Shown: positions 4,833 to 21,891, counted from the first letter of the stretch. The stretch is DNA of 64,000 bases from an uncultured Chloroflexia bacterium (GCA_963768655.1 CAVYIM010000004.1:672001-736000); one strand, 5' to 3'. Numbers and translations are program-made. The notes: generated by a model not told the origin, from the letters alone.

Positions 4833-5961
<1,129 letters not shown>

Positions 5962-5965
<4 letters not shown>

Positions 5966-7071: not shown

Positions 7072-7222
7072 GCAACGCGTTGAAGATGGCACGCTCGCAT
7101 GGGCGAGCGTGCCATCACACGCGCCCTGACCTATCCAGATGTCGAGTCGCCCGACCCGGCCGGTGCCGGGCGAGTAAGCCCGAGGTAAGCCCCGTGCAAT
7201 CGGTGCGCTGCATCCTGGCTGC

Positions 7223-8095: not shown

Positions 8096-8115
8096 CGGAA
8101 ACGGCCGCCGTTCCG
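8033..8115. repeat. 34-bp direct repeat, 2 copies, period 49 bp
   Basis: CCAGGCGTAGCTGACGGAAACGGCCGC(G/C)GTTCCG at 8033-8066 and 8082-8115 with one mismatch. A partial third GACGGAACGG lies near 8156. Confidence 0.8.
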
Positions 8116-8222
8116 GGCCGCGGTTCCGGGCCTCATACCGCGACTGTCGGCAACGGACGGAACGGCTCCGGCCCAGCCGGCTTCCCGGGCCATTCGGCCC
8201 GCACCCAGGGGACTCCTGTCCC

Positions 8223-8240
8223 TATGCGCAACTGCGCATA
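8223..8240. promoter_or_regulatory. Perfect palindrome, putative ArsR operator
   Basis: TATGCGCA-AC-TGCGCATA, 18 bp upstream of the ArsR start. Confidence 0.7.
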
Positions 8241-8258
8241 TATCCAACACTGCACGGC

Positions 8259-8642
8259 ATGGACGAGGTCTACAAGCTCCAGGCGGAAGTCCTGAAGACG
8301 CTCTCGAATCCGCGGCGGCTGGAGATCATCCACCTCCTCGCCGACGGTCCTCGTGAGGTCTGCAGGCTCGCCGAGGAAATGGGCATCAGCCAGCCCAACG
8401 TCTCGCAGCATCTGGCGCTCATGCGCTCAGCCGGAGTCGTCGAGGCGGAGCGCGATGGGCGCGAGGTGCGGTATCGGCTGAGCGATCCCGAGATCATCTG
8501 CGCCTGCGAGACGATGCGCGGCGTCCTCGTGCGCCGGCTATCGCGCATCTCGGCGGTCGCCACGCGCACCCCTGCCGAAGTCGTGGCCGGGCGCGCTGCG
8601 GCCGCCGCCGCCCAGACCGCCGCCGACCGGCCATCCAGCTGA
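8259..8642 (+). CDS. ArsR/SmtB family transcriptional regulator
   Basis: LKTLSNPRRLEII, SQPNVSQHLALMRSAGVV, RDGREVRYRL, with Cys in EVC and IICAC. Confidence 0.93.
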   Translation: MDEVYKLQAEVLKTLSNPRRLEIIHLLADGPREVCRLAEEMGISQPNVSQHLALMRSAGVVEAERDGREVRYRLSDPEIICACETMRGVLVRRLSRISAVATRTPAEVVAGRAAAAAAQTAADRPSS

Positions 8643-8650
8643 GGACCCCA

Positions 8651-9064
8651 ATGGACGAAACCATCTCGATCGTGCTCTTCTCCGGCACCGACGACAAGCT
8701 CCAGGCCGCCGCCGTCCTCGCCGCCGGGGCCGCCGCCCTGGGCCGGCCGGTCAAGATCTTCCTCCAGTATTGGGCGCTCGACGCCTTCCGGGCCGATCGA
8801 ATCATGTCCGACCACGGCCTGGCGCCTGAAGCTGGGGAGGCCGGCCGGGCCGCCGTCGACGCCGCCGCGAAGGCCGGCCAGGCTCGCTGGACTGACACAC
8901 TGCGCGCGGCCAAGGAGATCGGCGAGGTCGATATCCAGGCCTGCTCGCTCTCCATGGACATTCTCAAGCTCGAGCAGTCGGATCTGGATCCGCTCGTGGA
9001 CGGCGTCGAGGGTGTGGCAGCTTTCTACATCAATGCCGGCGAGGGCCAGATCATTTTCATCTAG
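8651..9064 (+). CDS. DsrE/DsrF-like sulfurtransferase (DsrE2/DrsE_2-type, short)
   Basis: ISIVLFSGTDDK..GAAALG..VKIFLQYWAL, conserved ACSLSMD cysteine, ends in IIFI. Confidence 0.85.
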   Translation: MDETISIVLFSGTDDKLQAAAVLAAGAAALGRPVKIFLQYWALDAFRADRIMSDHGLAPEAGEAGRAAVDAAAKAGQARWTDTLRAAKEIGEVDIQACSLSMDILKLEQSDLDPLVDGVEGVAAFYINAGEGQIIFI

Positions 9065-9134
9065 GAAACGAGAATCCGGTACCGCGCGGTGGCGGTCCGG
9101 AGCGCGACCACTTGCTGCGAAAGGACAGGACCAG

Positions 9135-9371
9135 ATGAGCAGTCTCGATATCAAGCTCAAGGTCGACGCCAGCGGCCTCTCGTGCCCGCTGCCGATTCTC
9201 AGGGCGACCCAGGGCATCAAGACCGTTGCCTCCGGCGAGCTCATCGAGGTCGTGGCAACGGACCCGGGCTCGGTCAAGGACTTCGCTGCATGGTCGGCCT
9301 CGACCGGCAACGCGCTCGTCGAGCAGGACTCCGCCAACGGTAAGTTCCGCTTCGTCCTTCGCCGCAAGTAG
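9135..9371 (+). CDS. tusA: Sulfur carrier TusA/SirA family protein
   Basis: VDASGLSCPLP motif, ATDPGSVKDFAAW. Confidence 0.92.
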   Translation: MSSLDIKLKVDASGLSCPLPILRATQGIKTVASGELIEVVATDPGSVKDFAAWSASTGNALVEQDSANGKFRFVLRRK

Positions 9372-9427
9372 GCCCACCCTTCCGGGCGTGGGGGCAGCCC
9401 GGCCGTCAGGAACGAAAGGATGCGAAT

Positions 9428-9925
9428 ATGCCCGCAGAGGCAGCCAGCAAGACCAAGAAGGTCTGCATCATCGCCTACAGTGGCGAGCTAGAGCCGACCT
9501 GGGCCTCCATGATCATCGCCTCGACCGCGGCCGCCATGGACATGGAGGTCTCGATCTTCGTGACGTTCTGGGGATTCCACGCCCTCGTGAAGGACAGCAG
9601 GCGTCTACCCGGCCGGAACTGGATGCAGAAGATGCTATCCGTCATGCAGAGGCCGGGGATCAGCCACCGCAAGCTCAGCAAGATGAACTTCATGGGCATG
9701 GGCCCGTGGATGATGTTCCAGCTCGCCAAGCAGTACAACGTCTCCAAGCCCAAGGACCTTCTCGCGATGTGCCAGGAGCTCGGGGTCAAGATCTACCCGT
9801 GCCAGATGACCATGGACCTCTTCGGGCTCAAGAAGGAGGACCTGATCGACGGCCTCGAGGATCCGGTCGGCGCGGCGACGATGCTGCAGCTGTCGACCGA
9901 GGCCGACTCCACGCTGTTCATCTAG
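9428..9925 (+). CDS. DsrE2-type sulfurtransferase
   Basis: IIASTAAAMDMEVSIFVTFWG, LSKMNFMGMG, IYPCQMTMDLFG, ends in TLFI. Confidence 0.9.
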   Translation: MPAEAASKTKKVCIIAYSGELEPTWASMIIASTAAAMDMEVSIFVTFWGFHALVKDSRRLPGRNWMQKMLSVMQRPGISHRKLSKMNFMGMGPWMMFQLAKQYNVSKPKDLLAMCQELGVKIYPCQMTMDLFGLKKEDLIDGLEDPVGAATMLQLSTEADSTLFI

Positions 9926-10062
9926 CCAATTCTGCGGGGGCCATCGGCGAGAAGCCCCTGGGGTGTTGACCGCAACCTGACGGTCGCTGGGCCACGCGCC
10001 GCATGGCGCGCGCAACGCGACGCCCGGGGCGGAACGGACCGGCGAGCCCGTACACTGCCGCC

Positions 10063-10977
10063 ATGATCGACTTCACGCCCAACCCTGTTGCCCTGGGACT
10101 CGGCCCGCTCGAGATCCGCTGGTACGGCCTCGCGTACGTGGCCGCAATCGCCGCCGGGACCTGGCTCGCCTTCCGCCTTGCGCGCCAGCGCGGTGAGCGC
10201 ACCGACATGCTCATCGATGGCCTGATCATCGTCGCCGTTGCGGCCCTCGTCGGCGGACGGGCGTATCACGTCATCGATCAGTGGGCCTACTACCAGAACC
10301 ATCTTGCCCAGATTGTCCTGCCGCCGTACAGCGGCCTGGGCATCTACGGTGGACTGTTCACGGGCATGCTGGCGGTTACCTGGCTCGTCCGTCACTACCA
10401 CGTCTCGTTCTGGCGCTGGGCCGACATCCTGGCCCCGTGCATCTTGCTGGCCCAGGCAGTAGGTCGGTGGGGCAACTATATGAACCAGGAGCTGTACGGC
10501 CCGCCGACGAACCTGCCCTGGGGCATCGCCATCCAGTGCCAGTACCGCGTGGCCGAATACGCCTGTCCGGCCGGTTCCGATCCGACGGCGACGCTCGGAC
10601 AGCATTTCACGCCGCTCTTCCTCTACGAGTCGATGCTGAGCCTGCTCGGCGTCGGCGTGATGCTCTTGCTGTGGCGCCGCTTCACGGCGCGGCGCCGCCT
10701 GCTCATCGCCGGCGATGTCGGCCTGCTCTACTTCGTCTGGTATGGCGTCGAGCGCAGCATTCTCGAAACGCTCCGCAGCGGGTGGAACTGGACTTTCTTT
10801 GGTCTCGCGACGGCGCAGATCGTGGGCCTGAGCGCGGCCGCCGCGGCGATCGTCGCCATTCTCGTTCGGCACTGGTGGGTGCGGCGTCACCCCGAGGGAG
10901 CCGATGGCGCTCCGGCTGAGGCCGCGCCACAGCTGGCAACCGCAGGGCCGAGATCGGGGTCAATCGAGATCGCGTAA
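10063..10977 (+). CDS. lgt: Prolipoprotein diacylglyceryl transferase (copy 1)
   Basis: GPLEIRWYG, GGRAYHVI, GLGIYGG, QAVGRWGNYMNQELYG, FLYES. Leaderless start with TACACT 6 nt before the ATG. Confidence 0.9.
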   Translation: MIDFTPNPVALGLGPLEIRWYGLAYVAAIAAGTWLAFRLARQRGERTDMLIDGLIIVAVAALVGGRAYHVIDQWAYYQNHLAQIVLPPYSGLGIYGGLFTGMLAVTWLVRHYHVSFWRWADILAPCILLAQAVGRWGNYMNQELYGPPTNLPWGIAIQCQYRVAEYACPAGSDPTATLGQHFTPLFLYESMLSLLGVGVMLLLWRRFTARRRLLIAGDVGLLYFVWYGVERSILETLRSGWNWTFFGLATAQIVGLSAAAAAIVAILVRHWWVRRHPEGADGAPAEAAPQLATAGPRSGSIEIA

Positions 10978-10986
10978 CGTCGACCG

Positions 10987-11349
10987 CTAGCGGAGGACGA
11001 AGATGCTCGTCAGCAGGATGAGCAGCACGGTCAGAGTTATGGCCGTGTAGAGCCGGTCCCCCTCGAGCGCGAAGCCCAGCACCGATGCCGCGACTCGTGT
11101 TACCGGTGTCGCCAGCAGGACCAGAAGGCCCAGCTGGACGACGGCGGCGGGTTCCAGGGCGGCCAGCCGGTCCGGCAGGTTGGAGAAGTTCGTCGTGGCG
11201 GCTGTGGATGCGGGTGCCGTACCCAGGAGCGAGCCCTGCCAGCCGACCGCCAGCGCCGCCGCGAAGCCGGCCCCGATGAGAGCCGCGCTGACGACCACGC
11301 CGGCGATCAGCACTGCACTGATCACCATTCTGAAACGCTCCGGCGTCAC
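10987..11349 (-). CDS. DUF1634-like membrane protein
   Basis: Three hydrophobic segments, GLLVLLATPVTRV motif, coupled (GTGA) to the upstream TauE gene, a typical pairing. Confidence 0.8.
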   Translation of the reverse strand: MTPERFRMVISAVLIAGVVVSAALIGAGFAAALAVGWQGSLLGTAPASTAATTNFSNLPDRLAALEPAAVVQLGLLVLLATPVTRVAASVLGFALEGDRLYTAITLTVLLILLTSIFVLR

Positions 11350-12188
11350 AGCCCGAACCCCAGACCACGGCCGATCGTCTCGATCCCGACAACCACGAGC
11401 ACCGGAAGAAAGACGAGCCGAACAGTGCGGTTCGATATCCGATGGAGAATCCTGGCGCCGATCAGCGCCCCGGCCAGCACGCCGAGCGCCACGGGAGCCG
11501 CTACCTGCGGGTCGATGTAACCACGACCCAGGTAAATGCCTGCCGAGGCTGCCGCCGTCACACCGATCATGAAGTTGCTCGTTGCCGAGCTGACCTTCAT
11601 CGGCAGGCGCATTGCTCCATCCATGGCGAGAACCTTGAGCACTCCAGAGCCGATCCCGAGCAGTCCGGACACCAGGCCTGCTATCCACATCAGCACGAAC
11701 CCGAGCGGAACGCGCCGCGCCGCGTACGGAACGTCGCGGTTCAGCTTGCGGTCCGGATAGGAGGACTCGAGACGAAGACGAGATGCCAGCACCGACGGCA
11801 GATCGACGGGCGGCGTCTCTTCTCCCATGCGCGCAACCTGCATGCCCGCCGATGCGAGCAGGATGATCCCGAGCAGCAGGTAGAGCAACGCCGGCGCCAC
11901 CGCGGCCGCCAGGAGTGCGCCGCAGACCGCCCCTGTGGTCGTCGCCAGCTCGAGAAACATGCCAACCCGCATGTCGGTCATGCGATCCCGGACATAGGCG
12001 GCGGCGGCGCCGGAGCTCGTGGCGATGACGGACACGATGCTCGCTCCTGCGGCCAGGTGGATGTCCACGCCGAAGCCGAACGTCAGGGCCGGGATGACCA
12101 GGATGCCGCCACCGACCCCCGCCAGAGCGCCTATGAGCCCTGCGGCGACACTGATCGCGAATACCCCAAGATCCGCAGCCGGGCTCAT
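11346..12188 (-). CDS. TauE/SafE family (sulfite exporter-like) permease
   Basis: GALAGVGGGILVIP and SGLLGIGSG repeats, KVSSATSNFMIGVTAAASAG, about 8 TM segments. Confidence 0.9.
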   Translation of the reverse strand: MSPAADLGVFAISVAAGLIGALAGVGGGILVIPALTFGFGVDIHLAAGASIVSVIATSSGAAAAYVRDRMTDMRVGMFLELATTTGAVCGALLAAAVAPALLYLLLGIILLASAGMQVARMGEETPPVDLPSVLASRLRLESSYPDRKLNRDVPYAARRVPLGFVLMWIAGLVSGLLGIGSGVLKVLAMDGAMRLPMKVSSATSNFMIGVTAAASAGIYLGRGYIDPQVAAPVALGVLAGALIGARILHRISNRTVRLVFLPVLVVVGIETIGRGLGFGL

Positions 12189-12227
12189 CGGGACAGCACT
12201 GCCATGTTGTCGCCCCTAGATCTGCAA

Positions 12228-12257
12228 CTTGCGCAAGTACGCAACTGCTGGTATCTT
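12228..12257. promoter_or_regulatory. Second putative ArsR operator plus extended -10, between divergent tauE and rhodanese
   Basis: TGCGCAAGTACGCA (12230-12243) matches 12/14 of the core of the 8223 palindrome and is followed by TGGTATCTT. Confidence 0.55.
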
Positions 12258-12351
12258 AGCTGACGCTCGGCGAGTTCGCCTGGTGATCCGCGACCGGGGT
12301 CACCGGTTCGTGGCGCACCAGGAACCACTCCACGTTGCATTGGAGCTGCTC

Positions 12352-12687
12352 GTGCATCTCTTCGCTCGGAACCCGACCCCTGAGATCGGAGTCGACGAGC
12401 TCGAGGATCTTCTCCGGCACGGAAGCGTGCGCGTCCTGGGTGTGCGCGAGGACTGGGAATTCCGCCGCGGCCGAGTGCCCGGGGCGATCAGCGTTCCACT
12501 GGGCCGCCTGGCGTCACAAGGGGAGGAGCTGCCGCGCGACAAGCCCTGGGTGGTCATCTGCCAGAGCGGCAACCGCAGCCTGGCGGCAACGGAGCTCCTG
12601 CTGAGCCGGGGCTTCGATGGCGCTGTCTCCGCCCGCGGCGGCACGAATGCCTGGGCTCGGGGCAATCGGCCGTTGGAGAGGGGCTGA
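12352..12687 (+). CDS. Rhodanese-like domain protein (cytoplasmic)
   Basis: VRE.WEF..GRVPGA, active-site loop ICQSGNRS, GGTNAW. GTG start after GGAG was chosen (ORF track starts at 12229). Confidence 0.88.
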   Translation: MHLFARNPTPEIGVDELEDLLRHGSVRVLGVREDWEFRRGRVPGAISVPLGRLASQGEELPRDKPWVVICQSGNRSLAATELLLSRGFDGAVSARGGTNAWARGNRPLERG

Positions 12688-12688
12688 C

Positions 12689-13318
12689 GTGGTCACCGAT
12701 CAGCGCCGGCTGGAATGGGACGAGCGCCACCGGGCAGGCGACTTCGAAGGCGAGGGGCCGAACTCCACCCTCATGCTGGGCCTGATGGGGCTGCGCCCGG
12801 GCAGTGCCCTGGAGCTTGCGTGCGGCAGCGGCACCAACGCCGTCTGGCTGGCCCGGCAGGGCTGGCGCACCACTGCCGTCGATTGGTCGCCAGTCGGTCT
12901 CGCCAATGGCAGATCCAAAGCGGACGAAGCCGGTGTTCAGGTCGATTGGCTGGAGCGCGATCTGTTCGCCTGGTCGCCGCCGGCCCGTCAGTTCGACCTG
13001 GTCGCCATCGTCTACCTGCACCTGCCGCCCGACGAACGCGGCCCTGCCTACTCGCGGGCCGCCGCGGCCGTGGCTCCCGGAGGGCGAATGCTTGTCGTGG
13101 GTCACGATCGCTTGCACGGCGCCGAGGGTCAGGGCGGACCCGATCCAGAGCGCCTGTTCACGGCCGACGAGATTGCCGCGGAGCTTCAGGCAGCCGATCC
13201 GGAGCTCGTCGTGGAACGGGCGGAAGTCGTGCGCAGGGTACCGTGGCCGGGCCGAGGCCCCATCGATTCACTTCTCATCGTCCGCCGTCCCCCAACTCGT
13301 GCGGCCCAGGCAGGATAG
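12689..13318 (+). CDS. Class I SAM-dependent methyltransferase (TehB/TPMT-like)
   Basis: WDERH, ALELACGSGTNAVWLA, AVDWS, FDLV, APGG. Confidence 0.85.
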   Translation: MVTDQRRLEWDERHRAGDFEGEGPNSTLMLGLMGLRPGSALELACGSGTNAVWLARQGWRTTAVDWSPVGLANGRSKADEAGVQVDWLERDLFAWSPPARQFDLVAIVYLHLPPDERGPAYSRAAAAVAPGGRMLVVGHDRLHGAEGQGGPDPERLFTADEIAAELQAADPELVVERAEVVRRVPWPGRGPIDSLLIVRRPPTRAAQAG

Positions 13319-13319
13319 C

Positions 13320-13802
13320 GTGGGCTCGCAGCGGCTTCCCGACCTGGGCCGGCGTGGGGAGGGCTGGTTCCTGATGCAGCTCGTCCTCTTCGGCGCCATC
13401 GCCCTCGCCGGCACCGTTGGTCCGATCTGGAGCGGCTGGCCCAGGCTGGCCAGCGTCCTTGTCGGCGCGGTTCTGCTCGGCTGCGGCGGGGTCCTGTCCC
13501 TGCGCGGAGTCCTGGACCTGCGCGAGAACCTGACGCCTTTTCCCAGGCCGCTGCCAGGCGCCCGTCTCGTCGAGTCGGGGGCCTACCGGCTGGTCCGACA
13601 TCCGATCTACGGCGGCTTGGTGCTCGGCGCGGCGGGCTGGGGTCTGCTGACGGCCTCCGCCCTGGCCCTGCTCGGCACCCTGGTGCTGGTGGCCTTCTTC
13701 GATCTCAAGTCGCGCCGCGAGGAGATCTGGCTATCCGCCCAGTTCGAGGACTATGGCACGTACAGGAGCCGGACCCGGCGGCTGCTACCCTGGCTCTACT
13801 AG
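13320..13802 (+). CDS. Isoprenylcysteine carboxylmethyltransferase/PEMT family membrane methyltransferase
   Basis: LVESGAYRLVRHPIYGG, REEIWL..FEDYGTYRSRTRRLLP, 4 TM segments. Confidence 0.85.
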   Translation: MGSQRLPDLGRRGEGWFLMQLVLFGAIALAGTVGPIWSGWPRLASVLVGAVLLGCGGVLSLRGVLDLRENLTPFPRPLPGARLVESGAYRLVRHPIYGGLVLGAAGWGLLTASALALLGTLVLVAFFDLKSRREEIWLSAQFEDYGTYRSRTRRLLPWLY

Positions 13803-14407
13803 CGGTTCTTGTTGACCAGAGTCCGACCCGACGCCTGCCAGGCGTTCATCCCGCCCGTCAGGTTCCAGACATTGGTGTAGCCGAGGTTCAGGAGCGTCTG
13901 GGCGGCCTGGGCGCTCTGAACCCCGCTCCGGCAGTAGACCAGGATCTTGGCGTTCTTGTCGGCTGGCAACTCCGAAGCCCGTGCCGTCAGCTGGTCGTAG
14001 GGGATGTAGAGATCAGTGCCGTCGATCTCGCCGCTGTACGGCGTCTTCACGTTGATCAGCGTGAAATCCTTGTCCTGGAGCATCTGGGCCAGCTGGTCGG
14101 GAGTCACGTTGGTCCACGTGGAGACGCGCGTGGGACCCGCTGCTCCCAACTGGCTCGCGCTGGCGAGCACCGTCCCTGTGGCGGTCGAACTGCCACCCTG
14201 GTTGGCGATCGCGCCCATCACGAAGTCGGCGGCAATTACGACCACTGATATCAGAACGAGCGTGACGATGAGGAGGCCCATCTGGCCGCGTCCGCCCATC
14301 TGTGACGGGGGCGCCGGGCGCGGCGCTCGAGGGGCCTGGCTCGAGCTGTCAGGCTGCGGCGCGATTCGGCCTGCCTTCTCCGGATGCTGGCGACGCTTCG
14401 AAGTCAC
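13799..14407 (-). CDS. Membrane-anchored rhodanese-like domain protein
   Basis: Basic N-terminus, one TM (LLIVTLVLISVVVIAADFVMG), S/T/G linker, VYCRSGVQS active loop, GGMNAW. Confidence 0.85.
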   Translation of the reverse strand: MTSKRRQHPEKAGRIAPQPDSSSQAPRAPRPAPPSQMGGRGQMGLLIVTLVLISVVVIAADFVMGAIANQGGSSTATGTVLASASQLGAAGPTRVSTWTNVTPDQLAQMLQDKDFTLINVKTPYSGEIDGTDLYIPYDQLTARASELPADKNAKILVYCRSGVQSAQAAQTLLNLGYTNVWNLTGGMNAWQASGRTLVNKNR

Positions 14408-14440: not shown

Positions 14441-15580
14441 CTACCCGCGCAAGCGGATCGCGATCAGAGCAACAGGCCGGTACAGGACGTGGGCGAACTT
14501 GCCGAACGGCACCAGAAGCACGAGGGCCATCGCGACGCCGACGTGAAGCAGGAACATCGGGTAGCCCCATGCCGGAGCCGAGGGCAGGTAGAGCCCGAGC
14601 TCCAGCAAGAACCCGGTCACACCCGCCACCCACAGCATTCCCAGGAACGTCCAGTCGGGCGTGGTCGAGTGCAGGCTGGATCGATCGCTCTTGCGCAACC
14701 GTCGGACGATCAGCACCGTTGTGCCATAAATGAGGGCTGCTCCTGCCAGAGTGCCAAGCAGGCGCACCGGGTACCAGATCGGCACCGGCGTCCCGGTCGC
14801 CTTCAGGCCCAGGAGCTCGAGTCCGTAGTCGGCCATCGTGGCGCCCAACAGGCCCAGGAAGCCCCACATGGTCGTGAAATGGATGAACCAGCGCTGCAGG
14901 TACCACGGCCGAGATTCGGTCGCGTCGGCACACTCCTGCCGGAAGCGCGTCTGCGCGAGCGATTCGGTGCCCACGGCGTAGACAACGGCGTCGGCCGCTC
15001 TGCGGACGCCGGGTCTGCCAATCGTCTTGCCCTGGCCGCGGCCGACGTGCCGGATCATCTCGAACAGGCCGGCAAGCGCCGCCACTCCCATGATCGCCAT
15101 GACGCCCACACCCAGGTTGTGGACGAAGTCAGACGGGACGAACTGGAAGAGGGTCAGCGTCGAGCCGTCTGTCGGGCCATGGACGGAATACATGAAGGCC
15201 GCGAGGAGGCCGACGAGGGCAACGATGAAGACGCCGGCGAACCAACGCGACGTAGCCAGGAGGTAGGCCAGGTGGGTTCGGTCGTAGCTGGCCACGGCAT
15301 AGCGGCGGGCCGCGTGCATGAACGAGGCCGGATCGGCCTGGGTCGGGCAGCTCTCGCTGCACTCGGCGCAGCCGTAACAGGCCCACAGCTCCGGGCTGGA
15401 CAGCAGCTGGTCGCGGAGACCGAGCTGAGCGTAGCGGGCCATGCGTCGCGGGAACGAGGCTCCATCCACGGAGAGCGGACAGATGGCCGTGCAGACGCCG
15501 CAGTTGAAGCACGCGGAGATGTCGGTGGCGCCGAAGCGACGCAGATCCGGATAGAGGTTGTGGTCGACTCGGGCGGTCAC
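14441..15580 (-). CDS. QmoC-like subunit: HdrC-type 2x[4Fe-4S] domain plus cytochrome b (NarI-like) membrane domain
   Basis: CFNCGVCTAICP and CYGCAECSESCP, about 6 TM segments, with His in FVHN, WFIHF, LLHV and GKFAHVLYRP. Confidence 0.85.
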   Translation of the reverse strand: MTARVDHNLYPDLRRFGATDISACFNCGVCTAICPLSVDGASFPRRMARYAQLGLRDQLLSSPELWACYGCAECSESCPTQADPASFMHAARRYAVASYDRTHLAYLLATSRWFAGVFIVALVGLLAAFMYSVHGPTDGSTLTLFQFVPSDFVHNLGVGVMAIMGVAALAGLFEMIRHVGRGQGKTIGRPGVRRAADAVVYAVGTESLAQTRFRQECADATESRPWYLQRWFIHFTTMWGFLGLLGATMADYGLELLGLKATGTPVPIWYPVRLLGTLAGAALIYGTTVLIVRRLRKSDRSSLHSTTPDWTFLGMLWVAGVTGFLLELGLYLPSAPAWGYPMFLLHVGVAMALVLLVPFGKFAHVLYRPVALIAIRLRG

Positions 15581-15828
15581 GGCCGGGCCTCCTTTTGCAC
15601 GGCGAAGTACCGGAAGTAGCCCTCGGGCGTGGCTTCCTTGACCTCGCGCACGTAGCCGTAGCGGCGCATGCCCATGACCCAGTACATGGCCTCGTTGGCC
15701 GGACGCCCGATCGCCTCCGCGATCTCGGGAACGGTGTGGGGCCCGTCGGCGAGGACCCCGAGGATGCGGTCCCGCATGAATGGCTCCTCTCGGACGATCT
15801 CTCGAACGTCCCTGTTGGCTGACGTCAT
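15577..15828 (-). CDS. Small winged-helix protein embedded in the Qmo/Hdr operon
   Basis: RDRILGVLADGPHTVPEIAEAIG...MRRYGYV, with 4-nt overlaps to both neighbours. Confidence 0.75.
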   Translation of the reverse strand: MTSANRDVREIVREEPFMRDRILGVLADGPHTVPEIAEAIGRPANEAMYWVMGMRRYGYVREVKEATPEGYFRYFAVQKEARP

Positions 15829-17591
15829 GCGATCGCCTCCTCGAGCAGGCCGTCGATCATGGCCGTGATCTGGGCGTCGGTGTAGCCGCGCAGGTCGATG
15901 GCGTTCTCCGGGCAGATAGGGACGCATCCACCGCAGCCCTTGCAGCCGGTCTGGCTGATCGCGGCGACCTCACGGCCGTTGAGCGACAGCTTCTCAATGG
16001 CGCCATAGGGGCAGGCGTTCTCGCACTTGCCGCACCAAGTGCATCTGTCCGGGTCCACCGTGGCCACTAGCGGGTCGAGCTCGGCGACTCCCTTCTTCAG
16101 CACCGAGGCGCTCTGGGTCACTGCGGCCAGACCCGAAGCCACGCTCTCCGCGGAGCTCTTGGGCCCCTGGCAGGCACCGGCGATCAGGACGCCGTCGACG
16201 ACGGTCTCGACCGGGCGCAGCTTGGGGTGGATCTCGTTGAAGAAGCCGTCGCTGCCGAGGGGCAGCTTGAGCAAGCCCACGAGGTCTTTGTTCTCGCGGG
16301 GGACCATGCCGGTGACCAGGACCACGAGGTCGACCGGAATCTCCAGTTCCTCATCGCCCGAGAGCAGGTCCCGGACGGTGACCGCCAGCCCGCCGGACCG
16401 GTCCGCGGTGACGACCGGTGGGGCGTCGTCGGGGTACTTGACGTAGACGGCGCCGTCCTTGCGGGCCTCGGTGTACAGGAGCTCGAGCGAGCCGTAGGTC
16501 CGGATGTCTCGATAGAGGTGGTACTGCCGCATCCCGGGGTCAAGCTCGGAGACTCGGATGGACGAGTGAGCCGTCGCCGCACAGCAGTACCGCGAGCAAT
16601 ACTCGTTGCCGTCTGGCTGGCGGCTGCCCACGCAGTAGATGTAGGCGACGCTGCGAACCGGCCTGTCGTGATAGCGCAGCTGTCCGTCGGCCCCGTCGAT
16701 CATCTCCTTGAACTCGGGCAGGGCCACGACACCGTCCATTCCGGCACCGAACTCACCATCGGCCGGCTGGTAAGAGTCGAAGCCGGTGGCGACGATGATC
16801 GAGCCGACCTCGATCGGGATCGTCTGTAGGGGATCGCCGTCGATTTGGACGCCGACCTGGTAGTTTCCGAAGCTGCCCGACTTGCTGACGACCTCGGCGC
16901 CGGTGAAGACCTTGATTGCTGGCCTCTTCCTGACCTCGGCGACGAGATGGTCGATCAGCTCGCGGCCGTTGCGCTCGTGCGGGTAGGTATTCCCGAAGCG
17001 TCCGACCCAGCCGCCCAGCTCACGCTCGCGCTCTACCAGGAAGACGCCCAGACCGACGTCGGCCAGGCCGATCGCGGCGCGGAGGCCGGAGATTCCACCA
17101 CCGATCACCAGGGCCTTCTGGGCCGTTTCGACCACGATCGGTTCCAGGGGTTCGCTCAGGCGGGTGCGGGCAATGACCCCGCGGACGAGGCCGATGGCCT
17201 TGCGGGTGGCCCCGGCAGGATCGTCGGTGTGAGTCCACGAGCATTGCTCGCGAATGTTGGCCTGGCTGTACTCGTAGGGGTTGAGCCCCGCGCGTTTGGC
17301 CACGCCACGGAAGGTCACGACGTGGAGCTTGGGCGAACAGGAGGCGACGACGAGGCCGTCGAGTCCCTGCTGCTCGATGTCCTGTTCCATCTCCTGCTGG
17401 CCCGCGTCAGAACAGGCGAACATCGTGTGCTTGGCGACGACGACGCCTGGCTCGTTCTTGACGGCGTCGACGACGGCCTGGACATCCACGTAGTCCGAGA
17501 TGTTGCCGCCGCAGTGGCAAACGTAGACACCGATTCGTCGCGCGGTCGGGCTCGGCGAAGCGAACGGGTGATCCTGCGAGAGCTCGCTCAT
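15825..17591 (-). CDS. HdrA/QmoB-like flavoprotein
   Basis: IGVYVCHCG..ACSD..SCSP..EQC N-terminal domain, GGGISG FAD motif, CVGSR..CSRYCC, HPKLRPV, C-terminal CTWCGKCENACP and CKGCGGCVPICP. No fused MvhD. Confidence 0.92.
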   Translation of the reverse strand: MSELSQDHPFASPSPTARRIGVYVCHCGGNISDYVDVQAVVDAVKNEPGVVVAKHTMFACSDAGQQEMEQDIEQQGLDGLVVASCSPKLHVVTFRGVAKRAGLNPYEYSQANIREQCSWTHTDDPAGATRKAIGLVRGVIARTRLSEPLEPIVVETAQKALVIGGGISGLRAAIGLADVGLGVFLVERERELGGWVGRFGNTYPHERNGRELIDHLVAEVRKRPAIKVFTGAEVVSKSGSFGNYQVGVQIDGDPLQTIPIEVGSIIVATGFDSYQPADGEFGAGMDGVVALPEFKEMIDGADGQLRYHDRPVRSVAYIYCVGSRQPDGNEYCSRYCCAATAHSSIRVSELDPGMRQYHLYRDIRTYGSLELLYTEARKDGAVYVKYPDDAPPVVTADRSGGLAVTVRDLLSGDEELEIPVDLVVLVTGMVPRENKDLVGLLKLPLGSDGFFNEIHPKLRPVETVVDGVLIAGACQGPKSSAESVASGLAAVTQSASVLKKGVAELDPLVATVDPDRCTWCGKCENACPYGAIEKLSLNGREVAAISQTGCKGCGGCVPICPENAIDLRGYTDAQITAMIDGLLEEAIA

Positions 17592-20305
17592 GCCGGCACC
17601 TTCTGGCTTTCGAGATGGGCCGCGACCTGGGCTACCGCAGCGCCGGCGTGGACGATCGAGTCGGCGATGTCCTTGGCACCGGACGCCGTGCCGGCGACGA
17701 ACACCCCAGGGATGCTCGTGCGTCCGGGGTCGATGTCGTCGTACGACTCGGCGACGTAGTGGTATTCGTCGAGGGCGAGGTCGTCGCCGATGAAGAGCCG
17801 CTCGACCTCACGGTTCGGCTGAACGCCGACCGCCAGCACGACCAGGTCGTACTCGGCCTCGACCAGCGCCCCGCCATGCTCGATGTCCTCGTAGCGCAGG
17901 ATCAGGTTGCCGTCTTCCTTCTCTGTGATCTTCGCTACCCGACCCTTGACGTACGTCGCGCCCATCGACTTGGCGCTCTCGTAGAACTCGTCGTAGCGCT
18001 TGCCCGGCGCCCGAATGTCCATGTAGTGGACCGTGACTTCGGCGAGCGGTAGAGCGCCCATGATCAGCTGGTTCTGCTTGATGGAGTACATGCAGCAGAA
18101 CCGTGAGCACAGAGGGTTTCCGACGGTCTCGTCGCGCGAGCCGGTGCACAGAACGTAGGCGATCCGTTCCGGGATCTTCCCGTCGCCGGGCCGCAGCACG
18201 GTGTTGTACGGCCTCGTGGGAGCGAGCAGGCGGTCCATCTGCATGCCGGTGATCACGTTCTTGAATCGGCCATAGCCGTATTCGGGCTTCAGATCCGCCG
18301 CGAACAGCTTGTAGCCGGTGGCGACGACCACGGCGCCGACGCGGACCTCCTCGACCTTCTCCCGCATCTCGAGGTGGATGGCGTCGGACGGGCAGGCCAC
18401 GACGCACGCCCGGCATTCCGAGCAGACGCCGCAGTCCAGGCAGTCGCCCGCGCTGGCCCGGGCCTCGGCTTCGCAAAGGGGCGCTTCGATCTCGGCGAAG
18501 TCGCGCGGCGAGCGGGCACCGGCGCCGGGGCCAGCCCGGAGCGGCCCGCTGTGGTTGTCGTAGTGCGCCTGGCGGGCGATGACTTTCGACTTGTCGACCA
18601 GCGGCAGCAGGTCGTCCATTTCGAACCCGTCGAGCGGCTCGCCGCGCAGCCAGCGGTCGATCATGTGGGCCGCCCGCCGGCCCTGCCCGACGGCGCGGGT
18701 GATGTCCGAGGCGCCGGTCGTAACGTCGCCAGCGGCGAAGATGTGAGGAACGGCCGTCTGGAGAGTATGCGGATCGGCGGCGACAGCGCCGTTCGGAGTG
18801 GCGGCCACCTGAGCGCCGAAGGCCGCGCCTTCGGGCGCCATTCCGATCGCCACCAGCACCGTGTCGCAAGGGATGACGAACTCGCTGCCCCTGACGGGCT
18901 CGGGGCGGCGACGGCCCGAGGCATCGGGCTTGCCCAGAGCCGTGCGCTGGCAGCGGAGACCGGTGACCTTGCCCGCGGCATCGCCGAGGACCTCTACCGG
19001 GGCGACCTGGAATGCGAAGCGGACACCATCCTGCTCGGCGTCGTCGACCTCGGCCCTGTGGGCGGGCATCTCCCCGCGGCCGCGACGGTAGGCGATCGTG
19101 GTCTCGGCGGCGCCGAGGCGGACGGCCGTTCGGGCCGCGTCCATGGCGACATTGCCGCCGCCAACGACCACGACACGCTTCCCGGTAAGATCGCCGCCGG
19201 AGCCGAGCTTCGTCGCCCGCAGGAACCGCAGGCCGCCGACGATGCCGTCGAGTGTCTCGCCCGGCACGTTGAGGGCCGTGGAGAGCGGGGTGCCGGTCGC
19301 GACCAGGACGGCGTCGAAGCCTTCTCGACGGAGGGCTTCGAGGTCGCCGACCGGCGAATTGGTGGCGATCTCAACGCCGACGGCGGTGACGTTGGAGATG
19401 TCCTGCTCGACGACCTCGGGCGGGAGACGGTATGCCGGGATGGCCAGGCGCAGGAAGCCGCCGGCAACGGGCGCGGCCTCGAAGATCTTGACACCGTAGC
19501 CCCGGCGAGCCAGCTGCCAGGCGGCGGTCAGTCCCGCCGGGCCGGAACCCACGACGGCGACGCGCTTGCCGTTGCTCGGCGGGACTTCCACGCCGGGTCC
19601 GTCCGTCGCTTCGTAATGCCTGTCGGCCGCGAAGCGCTTCAGGCGCCGGATCGGAAGAGTTCCCTCGAGCGAGCCGCGCGTACACTCGCCCTCGCACGGG
19701 GCGTAGCAGGCGCGACCGAGCGTGCCGACGAGCGGCGTCGCCTCGAGCACGAGCTGGAACGCCTTCTCATACTCGCCGCTGCGGATCAGCGACACGTAGC
19801 CGTGGGCCTTGATTCCGGCGGGACAGCTGAAGGTGCACGGTGAGGTTCCGGCGCGCTCGAGGACGGCTTTCTTGGGCACTGCCTGCGGGAACGTGATGTA
19901 GGCAGCCCGGCGGGCGACCAGGTCGGCGTTGAACTGGTCTGGCACCGCGACCGTGCAGGCGGTTTCGCACAGCTGGCAGCCGGTGCAGGCCGCCTCATCG
20001 ACAAAACGTGGCTTCTGACGGATGGTTGCCCTGAAGGTGCCGTCGCCATCGCGAGTGATGCCGTCCACCTCGGTATAGGTGAGGGCGGTCACGTTCGGGT
20101 GGTGGATCGAGGCCGCCATCTTCGGCGTGGAGATGCAGCTGGCGCAGTCCAGGGTGGGGAAGACCTTGCTGAGCAGGATCATCCGCCCGCCCACGCTGGC
20201 CTCCTTCTCCACCAGCAGGACCTTGTAGCCCATGTCGCCGAGCTTGAGGGCGGACTCCATGCCGGCAATGCCGCTGCCGACGACGAGGGCGTCGTAGTCG
20301 GTCAT
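17588..20305 (-). CDS. HdrA/QmoA-like flavoprotein with inserted ferredoxin and GltD-like NAD(P)H oxidoreductase module (HdrL-like)
   Basis: GSGIAG, FPTLDCASC, CTGCQLCETAC; then SPCTFSCP..GRACYAPCEGEC, GSGPAG, GGGNVAMD..YRR; then CLDCGVCSECRACVVACP and HdrA CTGSRD..CSRFCC. Start MTDY at 20305. Confidence 0.92.
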   Translation of the reverse strand: MTDYDALVVGSGIAGMESALKLGDMGYKVLLVEKEASVGGRMILLSKVFPTLDCASCISTPKMAASIHHPNVTALTYTEVDGITRDGDGTFRATIRQKPRFVDEAACTGCQLCETACTVAVPDQFNADLVARRAAYITFPQAVPKKAVLERAGTSPCTFSCPAGIKAHGYVSLIRSGEYEKAFQLVLEATPLVGTLGRACYAPCEGECTRGSLEGTLPIRRLKRFAADRHYEATDGPGVEVPPSNGKRVAVVGSGPAGLTAAWQLARRGYGVKIFEAAPVAGGFLRLAIPAYRLPPEVVEQDISNVTAVGVEIATNSPVGDLEALRREGFDAVLVATGTPLSTALNVPGETLDGIVGGLRFLRATKLGSGGDLTGKRVVVVGGGNVAMDAARTAVRLGAAETTIAYRRGRGEMPAHRAEVDDAEQDGVRFAFQVAPVEVLGDAAGKVTGLRCQRTALGKPDASGRRRPEPVRGSEFVIPCDTVLVAIGMAPEGAAFGAQVAATPNGAVAADPHTLQTAVPHIFAAGDVTTGASDITRAVGQGRRAAHMIDRWLRGEPLDGFEMDDLLPLVDKSKVIARQAHYDNHSGPLRAGPGAGARSPRDFAEIEAPLCEAEARASAGDCLDCGVCSECRACVVACPSDAIHLEMREKVEEVRVGAVVVATGYKLFAADLKPEYGYGRFKNVITGMQMDRLLAPTRPYNTVLRPGDGKIPERIAYVLCTGSRDETVGNPLCSRFCCMYSIKQNQLIMGALPLAEVTVHYMDIRAPGKRYDEFYESAKSMGATYVKGRVAKITEKEDGNLILRYEDIEHGGALVEAEYDLVVLAVGVQPNREVERLFIGDDLALDEYHYVAESYDDIDPGRTSIPGVFVAGTASGAKDIADSIVHAGAAVAQVAAHLESQKVPA

Positions 20306-20748
20306 GACTTCGCTCCGGCAGATCGGAGCGCAATCAAAGCTTCCGAGAACTGGTTCATGTGCCTGGCGAAGTTCTCGGCGCAGACCGAGCAGATGGCCGC
20401 CATCTTCAGCCGCTGCGGTGAGAGGCCCTCCGACTTCAGCAGCGTCTGTGCCTCGGCGACGATCCTCGACGCCCGCCTGGCGCAGTCGGGCAGGTAGGCG
20501 CACTCGTCCCCGTCCGAGGCGATGAAGACGCCCTCGAATCCCTGCTTGATGGCGTGAAGGATCCACGACGGACGGATGCCGCTGGTGCAGGGCACGCTGA
20601 TGACGCGTACCCCGGGCGAGTAGTGCAGGTGGGCGCTGCCGGCCAGGTCGATGCCCGGGTCGGAGATGTTGTTGGTGGAGAACACGAGAATCCGCGGTGC
20701 TGGCGCCGGGACCTTCTCGTCCACCGGGGCGGCGGCGAGCGCGGTCAT
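20302..20748 (-). CDS. MvhD/FlpD-like subunit with non-canonical cysteine pattern
   Basis: RILVF...GIDLAG...YSPGVRVISVPCTSG..ILHAIKQGFEGVFI...ECAY...QRL matches the MvhD fold. The N-terminal CCxWC is absent and a C-terminal CSVC is present. Confidence 0.8.
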   Translation of the reverse strand: MTALAAAPVDEKVPAPAPRILVFSTNNISDPGIDLAGSAHLHYSPGVRVISVPCTSGIRPSWILHAIKQGFEGVFIASDGDECAYLPDCARRASRIVAEAQTLLKSEGLSPQRLKMAAICSVCAENFARHMNQFSEALIALRSAGAKS

Positions 20749-20821: not shown

Positions 20822-21085
20822 CTACTTGCCGCGCCGAATGAAGACGCGGTCGTAGCCGTCAGCCTCGATGACACCGAGAAATTCGTGGCCTACCTTGTCT
20901 GCCCATGCGCCCATGTCCGTCTTGGTGACGGGGTCGCTAGACCAGACCTCGATGACGTCGCCCACGGCGACCTTGCCCATGCCCTTCTTGGCCTCGAGGA
21001 GCGGGCCCGGGCATGCGGAACCGCGGGCGTCGATGATCTCGGCGGCTGATATCGTTTCGAGCTCGGCTACGTTCAGGGCGCTCAT
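20822..21085 (-). CDS. tusA: Sulfur carrier TusA/SirA family protein (second)
   Basis: IDARGSACPGPLL, SSDPVTKTDMGAW. Confidence 0.9.
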   Translation of the reverse strand: MSALNVAELETISAAEIIDARGSACPGPLLEAKKGMGKVAVGDVIEVWSSDPVTKTDMGAWADKVGHEFLGVIEADGYDRVFIRRGK

Positions 21086-21108: not shown

Positions 21109-21474
21109 CTAGTAGGTCAGGGCGTTGGTGGCCGAGGTCAGCTCGGCGACGAACCGCGCGGCGGCCACGACCTCCGCGTTCTCGACCAGCTGAGTGGCCG
21201 TGTCGATCTGGCGCGACTTGACGCACGGTCCGCAGATGAGGATCTTGCCGCCCAGCTCGCGGTAGTCGTTCATGAGCTTGGCAAGCGGCGGGAACCCCTC
21301 GGCCGCGACCGAGTCGGCGCGTCCCTTGACCGCGATCTCTACACCATCTGCCTGGAGCCCGATGACCGCTTCGACATCCGAGACCAGGGCGGCGACTGCC
21401 ATCACGAAGGGGATCGTGACGTGCTCGGGATGATCCGGACCGTGCGTGACCATGAAGAGCAGCTTTTCGGACAT
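21109..21474 (-). CDS. DsrE family protein
   Basis: KLLFMVTHGPDHPE..PFVMAVAAL..LQADGV, ILICGPCVKSR (CxxC). Confidence 0.88.
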   Translation of the reverse strand: MSEKLLFMVTHGPDHPEHVTIPFVMAVAALVSDVEAVIGLQADGVEIAVKGRADSVAAEGFPPLAKLMNDYRELGGKILICGPCVKSRQIDTATQLVENAEVVAAARFVAELTSATNALTY

Positions 21475-21516: not shown

Positions 21517-21891
21517 TCAGAGCGTGGGTTCGATTGCCTCGGGGGTCGCCTGCGTCGAGCTCTCGAATGAAGCGGCCAGATCGCCGAGCCGGGCGATCCG
21601 CCGGATGAGCACCTGCCGCATCAGCCCGCACGCGGCCACGATCTCGGGATCGGCGAGCCGGTATCGGACCTCGCGGCCGTCTCGCACGGCTTCAACGATG
21701 CCGACGCCACGAAGAGCTGCGAGGTGCTGGGAGATGGCTGGCTGCGGCATGCCGAAGTGTTCGGCGAGCTTGCGGACCTCGACCGGGCCCGCCTCGCCCA
21801 GATAGTGGACGAGCTCCAACCGCCGTGGGCTGGCCAGCGTCTTTAGGAGGGTGGCCTGCAGGGCGTATATGCCGTCGGCCGGTCGCAACAT
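21517..21891 (-). CDS. ArsR/SmtB family transcriptional regulator (paralog of 8259)
   Basis: LKTLASPRRLEL, QPAISQHLAALR, RDGREVRYRLADPEIVAAC. Confidence 0.92.
   Translation of the reverse strand: MLRPADGIYALQATLLKTLASPRRLELVHYLGEAGPVEVRKLAEHFGMPQPAISQHLAALRGVGIVEAVRDGREVRYRLADPEIVAACGLMRQVLIRRIARLGDLAASFESSTQATPEAIEPTL

Follow-up and report, generated by a model that had tools for sequence, protein, structure and literature searches.

In the window, by which we mean the whole 64,000-nucleotide stretch of DNA from an uncultured Chloroflexia bacterium that was analysed, we found a stand-alone MvhD-fold protein that falls into a clade of its own within the MvhD/FlpD family. We refer to this protein as MvhD*, a label used here for an MvhD/FlpD-family relative with a changed set of cysteines. 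The mvhD* gene has a fixed place in the operon tusA-mvhD*-hdrA'-hdrA2-wHTH-qmoC, which is common to three clades; in the window, hdrA' encodes HdrL, which carries an NAD(P)H module. We propose, with a probability of about one half, that MvhD* acts as an MvhD-type connector in a flavoprotein:quinone complex resembling Qmo and Hdr, and that its CxxC motif serves as a thiol/persulfide working site. The features of the operon are collected in Table 1.

Table 1. The mvhD* operon of the window and the cysteine codons of mvhD*, in the direction of transcription.
Feature	Coordinates	Strand	Basis
ArsR-family regulator, operon head	21517..21891	-	Pfam HTH_5, E 2.7e-13
dsrE-like sulfurtransferase gene, facultative member	21109..21474	-	Pfam PF02635, E 1.1e-13
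tusA, 87 aa, active-site motif CPGP	20822..21085	-	Pfam PF01206, E 1.5e-19
mvhD*, 148 aa, MvhD/FlpD fold	20302..20748	-	translation, Pfam, AF2 and Foldseek
C54 codon (VPC, retained; = C42 of 5odc_D)	20587..20589	-	alignment and invariance
C83-C89 codons (CAYLPDC; C83 = C72 of 5odc_D, C89 new)	20482..20502	-	alignment and invariance
C120-S-V-C123 codons (CxxC, strand 4/helix 4)	20380..20391	-	invariance and DSSP of model
hdrL-like gene, next after mvhD*	17588..20305	-	Pfam and PDB matches; start ATG overlaps TGA stop of mvhD* (shared ATGA)
hdrA2	15825..17591	-	PDB 5odc_A, E 1.8e-117
small winged-helix protein, conserved operon member	15577..15828	-	weak Pfam HTH matches
qmoC-like gene	14441..15580	-	Pfam Fer4_8/Fer4_9 and Nitrate_red_gam; PDB HdrC chains, E 8e-14
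rhodanese, N-terminal hydrophobic segment, operon tail	13799..14407	-	Pfam PF00581, E 1.3e-14

The mvhD* gene starts with an ATG at 20748, and an AGGAG lies about 10 nt 5' of this codon. The profile PF02662 (FlpD/MvhD) matched residues 20-140 of MvhD* over profile positions 1-121 of 123, with a score of 101.9 bits (cut-off 22.3) and an E-value of 3.2e-29. The AF2 model of MvhD* has a pLDDT of 90.7, and its best Foldseek matches are 5odc_D, 8rvu_F and 7bkb_F, with an rmsd of 1.4-1.6 Å over 125-126 columns; 5odc_D aligned with MvhD* at an E-value of 1.4e-12 and was superposed by Foldseek with an rmsd of 1.4 Å over 126 columns. A search of the ESM Atlas yielded automatic MvhD names only. When 48,161 PDB representatives were searched with VIA-align, the matches were generic flavodoxin-like folds only (lumazine synthase, Z 10), and no sulfurtransferase was among the 50 matches listed. 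A reading of mvhD* as a split-off N-terminal domain of HdrA was rejected, because HdrA2 already has an N-terminal domain of its own, and the protein matches both the MvhD profile and MvhD structures. A search for fused forms returned 31 matches, among which only the receiver-domain fusions look real; fusions of TusA to MvhD* or of MvhD* to HdrL were rejected, as most of the long forms are read-throughs known from one sequence each, in which the linker is garbled (P0274, P0275 and P0298 show this).

Translation places the cysteines of MvhD* at positions 54, 83, 89, 120 and 123. The initial annotation had described a rewired cysteine set, in which FCCxWC is replaced by FSTNNIS and GCHxGDCHY by ASDGDECAY, VPC is retained, and new cysteines appear in PDC and ICSVC. 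The residue-by-residue alignment with 5odc_D agrees with this description throughout: FCCNWC aligns with FSTNNI(S), VMC with VPC, GGCHLGDCHY with AS-DGDECAY, and EWISASE with AICSVCA, while the PDC cysteine lies six residues downstream of the DEC cysteine. The canonical set is partly lost, as had also been stated, in that MvhD* is without all three FCCNWC-loop cysteines and without the first cysteine of GGCxxGDC. The canonical [2Fe-2S] ligands are probably C13, C42, C67 and C72 of 5odc_D, judging from conservation and from the accessible part of PMC13580544. Two of these putative ligands are kept in MvhD* (C42 as C54, C72 as C83), whereas C13 is replaced by Thr and C67 is deleted; the additional conserved Cys16 of canonical MvhD is Ile. 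By this assignment, MvhD* has lost two of the four putative [2Fe-2S] ligands, plus Cys16. The same genome also holds a canonical MvhD paralogue in an hdrCBA-mvhDGA cluster elsewhere, with FTCNWC, LMC and SGCHPGEC and no CxxC at the end of strand 4. The cysteine divergence is therefore specific to the mvhD* copy.

In the MvhD* model, the new cysteines follow the C-terminal ends of strand 3 and strand 4 and thus share a sheet edge with the canonical site; C89 is at the start of helix 3. DSSP of the model shows a strand at residues 114-118, then C120 and C123, then a helix at residues 124-146. The junction between a strand and a helix start is the usual place of redox-active CxxC motifs, and the CxxC of MvhD* is modelled at such a junction, as in that class.

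Conservation was scored in three sets: the closest relatives (79 loci plus the window), a CxxC-only sister clade (79), and a more distant set that includes Archaea (80); one locus (L059 = L215) is common to the closest and the distant five-Cys sets, which together amount to 79 + 79 loci plus the window. C54, C83, C89, C120 and C123 were all present in 80/80 sequences of the closest set and in 80/80 of the distant set, which covers Bacteria and Archaea. The deviants were two single-cluster metagenome sequences (>85% identity), P0046 with C123S and P0057 with C89R. In the sister clade, CxxC alone was invariant (79/79), with an equivalent of C54 in 44/79 and of C83 in 33/79 sequences. Since the CxxC is kept in 239/239 scored sequences from three clades, the objection foreseen in the initial annotation, that CSVC might not be conserved, falls away. 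C120xxC123 is the sole cysteine feature common to all three MvhD* clades, and for this reason we take it as the working site. The AIC(S/T)VC motif, T25 and H40 are completely invariant along with it in three clades and two domains of life. Because the sister clade retains the CxxC alone, the role of this motif needs no intramolecular four-Cys cluster. The MvhD* clade spans Thermoproteota to Chloroflexota, and its archaeal loci include Vulcanisaeta and Caldivirga. For the closest pattern alone, species-representative genomes yielded at least 587 stretches, many of them from soil, peat and freshwater.

With TusA scored as a neighbour when encoded no more than 700 nt upstream on the same strand, tusA was directly upstream of mvhD* at 230/234 testable loci (76/76, 78/78 and 76/80 in the three sets). 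A first HdrA was found near mvhD* at 77/77, 72/72 and 74/74 loci, and the operon included HdrA2 at 66/66, 60/60 and 55/55 loci, QmoC at 66/66, 58/60 and 54/55, and the small winged-helix gene at 66/66, 47/60 and 51/55. As a control in genomes of the same phylum, TusA was encoded within 1.5 kb of canonical MvhD at 0/28 loci and of MvhD* at 2/2 loci. Thus, where adjacency to both TusA and DsrE had been claimed for the window, the TusA part holds across loci, but DsrE is not a fixed member (41/61 loci in the closest set, 12/50 and 20/50 in the others). In favour of the initial annotation, mvhD* does not go together with a hydrogenase or formate dehydrogenase, with MvhG at 0/80 and MvhA at 1/80 related loci, and the Pfam matches of the operon genes in the window include no hydrogenase, formate dehydrogenase or Elp partner. 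Among the operon genes there is no further one that would obviously encode a catalytic subunit for sulfur. An HdrB-like gene was near mvhD* at 0/80, 0/50 and 1/50 loci in the three sets, and the CCG-domain genes of the genome are situated outside the operon.

HdrL has an HdrA core with an FPTLDCASC cysteine pair, and this core is interrupted by an NAD(P)H/FAD/Fe-S insertion of the NfnB/GltD type; in the PDB, residues 155-630 of HdrL match NfnA/GltD and residues 623-899 match HdrA. The FPTLDCASC motif was found at 79/79 loci of the closest set. The cysteine pair of the first HdrA is kept at 79/79, 72/75 and 76/76 loci in the three sets, and at 51/75 loci of the CxxC-only clade the first HdrA has a third cysteine (DCCSC). 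HdrA2 has N-terminal and C-terminal Fe-S domains and, as read from its sequence, no such cysteine pair. The QmoC-like protein combines an HdrC-like 2x[4Fe-4S] domain with a NarI-type membrane domain.

The accessible part of PMC12350162 describes MvhD as the last station before the bifurcating FAD', with onward transfer "by an unknown mechanism", and the accessible part of PMC13580544 likewise states that the passage of electrons from MvhD to the flavin is unknown. Our placement of MvhD* would follow from its kinship with subunits of the Mvh-, Fdh- and Elp-Hdr complexes, with the docking geometry carried over from methanogens. In such a complex, MvhD* would be turned towards the FAD and cysteine pair of HdrL, just as MvhD is towards FAD' of its partner HdrA', and TusA would take the place of hydrogenase or formate dehydrogenase in giving or taking reducing equivalents. 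The CxxC may swap dithiol/disulfide or persulfide with the TusA-bound sulfane sulfur and with the HdrL cysteine pair, much as thioredoxin reductase and thioredoxin do. Where all five cysteines are present, C54, C83 and C89 may hold a neighbouring Fe-S or metal centre, or may otherwise support the CxxC site. At the other end, the HdrC-like wire would lead into the membrane/quinone domain of QmoC, so that this domain, and not MvhD*, would occupy the HdrB position. The direction could be the oxidation of sulfane sulfur or sulfide, feeding quinone and NAD(P)+, or the reduction of carrier persulfide. Because the proposed contact between TusA and MvhD* is drawn from gene adjacency, DsrE, HdrL or another site could also be the partner of TusA.

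A more far-reaching reading, which we regard as speculative and unlikely, is that TusA and MvhD* form a two-electron, sulfur-based input/output module of a flavin-based bifurcating enzyme. A cysteine relay would run from TusA through the MvhD* CxxC and the HdrA cysteine pair to the FAD, which would then split the electron pair between menaquinone (through QmoC) and NAD(P)+/ferredoxin. Such a module would oxidise sulfide or the sulfane sulfur bound to the carrier, and the cysteine relay would replace the [2Fe-2S] hop of methanogens.

The five invariant cysteines, two of them retained at canonical ligand positions, have the look of a metal or cluster site, and this counts against a simple dithiol relay, which needs two. 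A possible, if doubtful, explanation is a re-ligated Fe-S cluster, held by C54, C83 and two new cysteines or by C83, C89, C120 and C123; MvhD* would then be a single-electron wire to or from HdrL, and TusA would deliver its sulfur elsewhere. The strict invariance of all five cysteines in Bacteria and Archaea, the unchanged fold (rmsd 1.4 Å to 5odc_D) and the position of the new cysteines on the canonical sheet edge in the model are consistent with it. However, the sister clade has the same operon and the same TusA neighbour with only the CxxC invariant, so a four-Cys cluster is unneeded for the shared function, and the operon offers no other subunit that would obviously handle the sulfur. Alternatively, and with rather low probability, the MvhD* CxxC and the DCxxC of the first HdrA may together bind a cluster or metal beside the FAD. 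An unidentified density is held by the HdrA cysteine pair of the methanogen complex and contacted by Asp71 and His68 of MvhD, according to the accessible part of PMC13580544; the equivalents of these two residues in MvhD* are E82 and D79, beside C83. Such an inter-subunit site would be a fixed version of the ligand density on HdrA Cys202/Cys205 of methanogen complexes. The conserved cysteine pair of the first HdrA argues for this site, as does the fact that DCCSC occurs in just that clade in which MvhD* is no longer bound to C54, C83 and C89; the third cysteine of DCCSC suits a metal site between the subunits no less than it suits a thiol relay. On the other hand, the co-variation with DCCSC counts as one event because it comes from a single clade split, and the obligatory TusA is left without explanation.

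The initial annotation had cast MvhD* as a terminal catalytic site in place of HdrB, which would reduce a TusA or DsrE disulfide or persulfide with electrons from HdrA. The absence of HdrB from the operon, the conserved CxxC and the adjacent TusA would agree with this, but "replacing HdrB" is probably the wrong analogy, and we consider the proposal improbable. Judged by textbook potentials, NAD(P)H together with menaquinol would be ill suited to reducing a persulfide, and DsrE is facultative. By homology, MvhD would sit on the donor arm of HdrA, where electrons enter, and not at the HdrC end (PMC12350162, accessible part). In addition, the HdrC-like domain is here fused to a membrane quinone-type domain that ends the wire, and the HdrB position is therefore more likely that of QmoC than that of MvhD*. 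It is very improbable that MvhD* is a degenerate structural subunit, which scaffolds the HdrL/HdrA2 dimer and whose cysteines bind a structural metal such as zinc. The loss of canonical ligands and the variability of the other cysteine positions in the sister clade would suit such a role, but the CxxC with AIC(S/T)VC, T25 and H40 would hardly remain invariant in three clades and two domains of life, and the strict linkage to TusA also speaks against it.

In the portions of papers reached by our literature search, we found none on a tusA-mvhD-hdrA-qmoC operon or on the cysteine variant of MvhD*. The MvhD* clade has rebuilt, with new cysteines, the site just before the bifurcating flavin of heterodisulfide reductases, and the sulfur carrier TusA stands in for its hydrogenase partner. 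If sulfur or thiols are handled by the CxxC, as in our preferred reading, the operon would tie sulfane sulfur to NAD(P)H and the quinone pool in a way so far unrecognised, and would do so in uncultured bacteria that are very common; it would also help in working out how the flavin of Hdr enzymes is loaded. If there is only a re-ligated cluster, MvhD* would connect electron carriers in the ordinary way, and only its ligand set would be unusual. If the bifurcating sulfur module is true, it would be a new way of energy conservation from sulfur and a natural example of a bifurcating HdrA flavin that is loaded with two electrons at once.

Compared with MvhD of the methanogen complexes MvhAGD-HdrABC, FdhAB-MvhD-HdrABC and ElpABC-HdrABC (PDB 5odc, 7bkb and 8rvu), MvhD* has the same Pfam family and fold, its gene adjoins genes for HdrA-type flavoproteins, and two cluster cysteine positions are kept. 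Unlike methanogen MvhD, it is without two putative ligands and Cys16 and has three new invariant cysteines, including the CxxC. Its operon has TusA and no hydrogenase, formate dehydrogenase or Elp partner; unlike the methanogen Hdr complexes, it lacks HdrB and has the HdrC-like domain fused to a membrane domain. The operon resembles QmoABC in that a QmoC-type subunit (HdrC-like Fe-S plus membrane domain) accompanies two HdrA-like flavoproteins, and an MvhD-type module is associated with QmoABC, including type II, as well. In contrast to QmoABC, MvhD* is encoded separately and has a cysteine set of its own, TusA is obligatory, and the first HdrA has an NAD(P)H module. "Type II" Qmo is described in PMC10504309 as closer to HdrA and as occurring in organisms without Dsr or Apr; the accessible text of that paper does not mention MvhD and mentions TusA twice, on other matters. 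In the present genome (an 88.6% complete assembly), the best match to aprA had 29 bits against a cut-off of 642 and no dsrA was found; a Pfam search of the genome for AprB gave no match, with its controls silent as well.

The sHdr pathway is a sulfur-oxidising Hdr-like system with TusA/DsrE3 carriers and ArsR-type regulators, and the mvhD* operon likewise has sulfur-carrier genes alongside Hdr-type flavoproteins and an ArsR-type regulator. sHdr cannot do without lipoate-binding proteins and CCG subunits of the HdrB type and, to our knowledge, has neither MvhD nor QmoC, whereas an HdrB-type CCG subunit is absent from the mvhD* loci (0/80). In the thioredoxin reductase/thioredoxin and ferredoxin:thioredoxin reductase (FTR) systems, the cysteine pair of a flavoprotein passes reducing equivalents to a CxxC partner, in FTR beside an Fe-S cluster. 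MvhD* has no sequence or fold kinship with these proteins, and the redox activity of its CxxC is putative; they nevertheless provide a working analogy, in which the CxxC of MvhD* would likewise act from a strand-to-helix junction.

By profile and fold, the product of mvhD* (MvhD*, P0001) is a member of the MvhD family. The Pfam FlpD/MvhD profile PF02662 matched P0001 with 101.9 bits (cut-off 22.3), and among solved MvhD chains its sequence matched 5odc_D with an E value of 1.4e-12. The AlphaFold2 model of MvhD* (mean pLDDT 90.7, 57-row alignment) was aligned by Foldseek to 5odc_D, 8rvu_F and 7bkb_F with an rmsd of 1.4-1.6 Å over 125-126 columns. MvhD* departs from canonical MvhD in its ligand set and in its donor partner, both of which are defining features at the functional level.

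The initial annotation had described a rewiring of the cysteine motifs, and each of its motif strings was reproduced when MvhD* was aligned with 5odc_D. The segment F-C12-C13-N-W-C16 of 5odc_D corresponds to F-S-T-N-N-I in MvhD* (T25 taking the position of C13), V-M-C42 to V-P-C54, G-G-C67-H68-L-G-D71-C72 to A-S-(gap)-D79-G-D-E82-C83, N78 to C89, and I-S108-A-S-E111 to I-C120-S-V-C123. Because C12 is not conserved (Thr in the canonical paralogue of the same genome, Ile in 7bkb_F), we infer that the canonical cluster ligands are C13, C42, C67 and C72; on that ligand set, MvhD* would have kept two of four ligands, lost Cys16 and gained three cysteines. In the available text of PMC13580544, MvhD His68 and Asp71 touch an unidentified ligand on the HdrA Cys pair. 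By DSSP of the MvhD* model, C83 belongs to the loop that follows strand 3, C89 stands where helix 3 begins, and C120 and C123 lie between strand 4 (residues 114-118) and helix 4 (residues 124-146).

The genome assembly (G000, 88.6% complete) contains a further FlpD match (167 bits). It is located on the same contig, at a distance of about 526 kb, and is part of an hdrC-hdrB-hdrA-mvhD-mvhG-mvhA cluster. This paralogue carries the canonical FTCNWC, LMC and SGCHPGEC motifs, and its sequence has no CxxC after strand 4.

Features of the mvhD* region and the canonical paralogue cluster (window positions unless stated)
Feature	Position	Strand	Remarks
HypD and HypE-like (AIR synthase-related) hydrogenase maturation gene	4253-7071	+	
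Second sulfur-carrier set: ArsR, DsrE2-like (DrsE_2), TusA, second DrsE_2	8259-9925	+	
DUF1634 and TauE/SafE exporter genes, then rhodanese and SAM methyltransferase	10987-13318	-, then +	
Rhodanese	13799-14407	-	
QmoC-like	14441-15580	-	HdrC-like 2x[4Fe-4S] and NarI-type membrane domain
Winged-helix protein	15577-15828	-	
HdrA2	15825-17591	-	N- and C-terminal Fe-S domains, without Cys pair
HdrL-like (first HdrA)	17588-20305	-	HdrA core with FPTLDCASC, split by NfnB/GltD-type insertion
mvhD*	20302-20748	-	148-codon open frame, ATG at 20748
TusA	20822-21085	-	CPGP motif
DsrE-like	21109-21474	-	
ArsR regulator	21517-21891	-	
Canonical hdrC-hdrB-hdrA-mvhD-mvhG-mvhA cluster	L008 (G000:C4:158000-177000), about 5321-12170	-	Normal MvhD

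An AGGAG lies about 10 nt upstream of the mvhD* ATG. The mvhD* TGA stop and the hdrL ATG overlap as ATGA (20302-20305, read from the sequence), and a like overlap of hdrA2 with the winged-helix gene at 15825-15828 follows from the ORF coordinates; these overlaps suggest translational coupling. Both TusA and both DsrE-family genes found in the G000 assembly are inside the window. Beside the operon's copies lie the second sulfur-carrier set, TauE/DUF1634, two rhodaneses and a methyltransferase; with the genes at 10987-13318 flanked on either side by a sulfur-carrier set, this part of the window resembles an island of sulfur-handling genes. In the same 88.6% complete assembly, no dsrA was found and no aprA above the cut-off (best 29 bits).

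A word-index search with MvhD* returned 4710 proteins at E <= 0.001, the best 120 of which were 85-94% identical to it, one being named Candidatus Limnocylindrales. An exhaustive search of 50% representatives gave 825 matches, 20 of them at E <= 1e-30; beyond the close relatives, identity fell to that of canonical MvhDs, about 30-35%. Three scans of species-representative genomes then yielded three sets of 80 loci each. Set 1 comprises the best 80 of the loci nearest to MvhD* (at least 598 pattern matches, at least 587 confirmed). Set 2 was seeded with distant representatives having only the CxxC (168 matched, 109 confirmed) and set 3 with distant five-Cys representatives (239 matched, 149 confirmed); sets 1 and 3 share one locus (L059 = L215). 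Set 1 is chiefly Chloroflexota, with Actinomycetota, Thermoleophilia, Gemmatimonadales and one Peptococcaceae; set 2 covers Anaerolineae, Acidobacteriota, Verrucomicrobiota, Gemmatimonadota and Thermodesulfobacteriota; set 3 covers many bacterial phyla and archaea including Thermoproteota (Vulcanisaeta, Caldivirga, Acidilobaceae), Nitrososphaerota, Thermoplasmata, Bathyarchaeota and Archaeoglobales.

For cysteine scoring, one locus per set was left out, its tblastn match not spanning the protein. All five cysteines were present in 80/80 sequences of set 1 and 80/80 of set 3 (each 79 loci plus the window). In set 2 (79 loci), equivalents of C54, C83 and C67 occurred in 44/79, 33/79 and 16/79, and no column matching C89 reached the 10% listing threshold. 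The C-terminal CxxC, on whose conservation the initial annotation had let its reading depend, was kept throughout (80/80, 79/79 and 80/80 in sets 1, 2 and 3). When 41 rows from sets 1 and 2 were aligned, T25, H40, A118, I119, C120, V122 and C123 were among the invariant positions. Departures from the five-Cys pattern, each at one Cys, were seen in two single metagenome clusters.

A quick IQ-TREE phylogeny of 84 subsampled rows (the window, one locus in eight from set 1, one in four from set 3, one in five from set 2, 27 labelled canonical sequences and 10 others) set the canonical MvhDs apart from a CxxC-bearing clade (SH-aLRT 86 and 91), within which the five-Cys sequences (92) and the CxxC-only sequences (98) form separate clades. 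P0184, with the canonical cysteines and a CxxC, was basal, and P0244, labelled canonical without a Cys check, fell inside the CxxC-only clade. In three proteins of 275-277 residues (P0283, P0284 and P0286; cluster sizes 4, 10 and 1, two of the three with several members), a five-Cys MvhD* is naturally fused to a response-regulator receiver domain, a hint that the module may also serve in signalling. Among other genomes of the phylum, several canonical FlpD matches have a single in-frame TGA and may be selenocysteine-containing MvhD/VhuD-type proteins.

Synteny was determined by tblastn of the window proteins against the loci and scored only where the flank was long enough. TusA was found within 700 nt upstream on the same strand in 76/76, 78/78 and 76/80 loci of sets 1, 2 and 3. 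The set 3 exceptions were L171, in which TusA was not found, L206, with TusA at -1078, and the Nitrososphaerota loci L176 and L183, with TusA 6.2 kb downstream. L176 and L183 have a variant operon with HdrC/HdrB-like genes in place of QmoC, followed in L176 by MvhG/MvhA-like hydrogenase genes. The control consisted of canonical MvhD loci (28, drawn from 120 additional genomes of the phylum) and the G000 paralogue: none (0/28) had TusA within 1.5 kb, while both MvhD*-type loci in that sample did (2/2). Of the link with TusA/DsrE initially proposed, the gene neighbourhood supports the TusA part; DsrE appears facultative, being found at any place in the locus in 41/61, 12/50 and 20/50. The first HdrA (77/77, 72/72, 74/74), HdrA2 (66/66, 60/60, 55/55), the winged-helix protein (66/66, 47/60, 51/55) and QmoC (66/66, 58/60, 54/55) accompany MvhD* in sets 1, 2 and 3, and HdrB-like genes were found in 0/80, 0/50 and 1/50. 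The first HdrA is short, without the NAD(P)H insertion, in set 2 and most archaeal set 3 loci. Some genomes hold two copies of the module (L072 and L229 on the same contig; L057 and L085 in the same MAG).

TusA has CPGP in 78/78 loci of set 1 and 76/78 of set 2. The first HdrA has FPTLDCASC in 79/79 set 1 loci and a DCxxC pair without a third Cys in 76/76 set 3 loci; in set 2 the pair is present in 72/75, with a third Cys (DCCSC) in 51/75. DCCSC accompanies the CxxC-only MvhD* clade (set 2, L091-L170) and DCASC the five-Cys clades; this correlated change is tied to a single split between clades and amounts to one event.

In methanogens, according to the available text of PMC12350162, MvhD is 'the electron-transferring connector' that joins the donor module to Hdr; electrons travel by way of the N-terminal clusters of HdrA to the [2Fe-2S] cluster of MvhD, and from this cluster, 'by an unknown mechanism', to FAD' in the partner HdrA'. 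In the window, HdrA2 has the arm domains and lacks the Cys pair, and HdrL has the Cys pair and FAD without the N-terminal domain. Because of this split, the sequences fit an HdrL/HdrA2 heterodimer in which one flavin would be served by MvhD*. TusA, not a hydrogenase, would be the obligatory extra partner. Since the CxxC is the sole feature kept in every clade, we take it as the probable working site of MvhD*, which would exchange with TusA-bound sulfur and/or the HdrA Cys pair. C54, C83 and C89 may form a neighbouring Fe-S centre, may re-ligate a cluster together with the CxxC, or may merely give support. The HdrC-like wire would terminate in the QmoC membrane domain, so that a quinone site would fill the HdrB position. 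The initial proposal, either an altered cluster ligation or a thiol/persulfide CxxC in exchange with TusA/DsrE, is partly supported, as to the conserved CxxC and the gene link to TusA; the substitution for the missing HdrB would more probably fall to the QmoC quinone site than to MvhD*. By textbook midpoint potentials, the value for the sulfide/sulfane couple is close to the average of the menaquinone and ferredoxin values and lower than the average for menaquinone and NAD(P)+; hence sulfur-driven bifurcation appears feasible, the reverse reaction less so.

Our literature search found no description of the window operon or of the MvhD* Cys variant. The operon is Qmo-like and is probably the 'type II Qmo' of PMC10504309, which the available text places in organisms lacking both Dsr and Apr and describes as of unknown function; MvhD is absent from that text, and its two mentions of TusA are unrelated. 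New here are the mapping of the MvhD* cysteines onto the canonical ligands, their comparison over three clades with the CxxC as the common core, the control for TusA specificity, and the comparison of the HdrA Cys pair.
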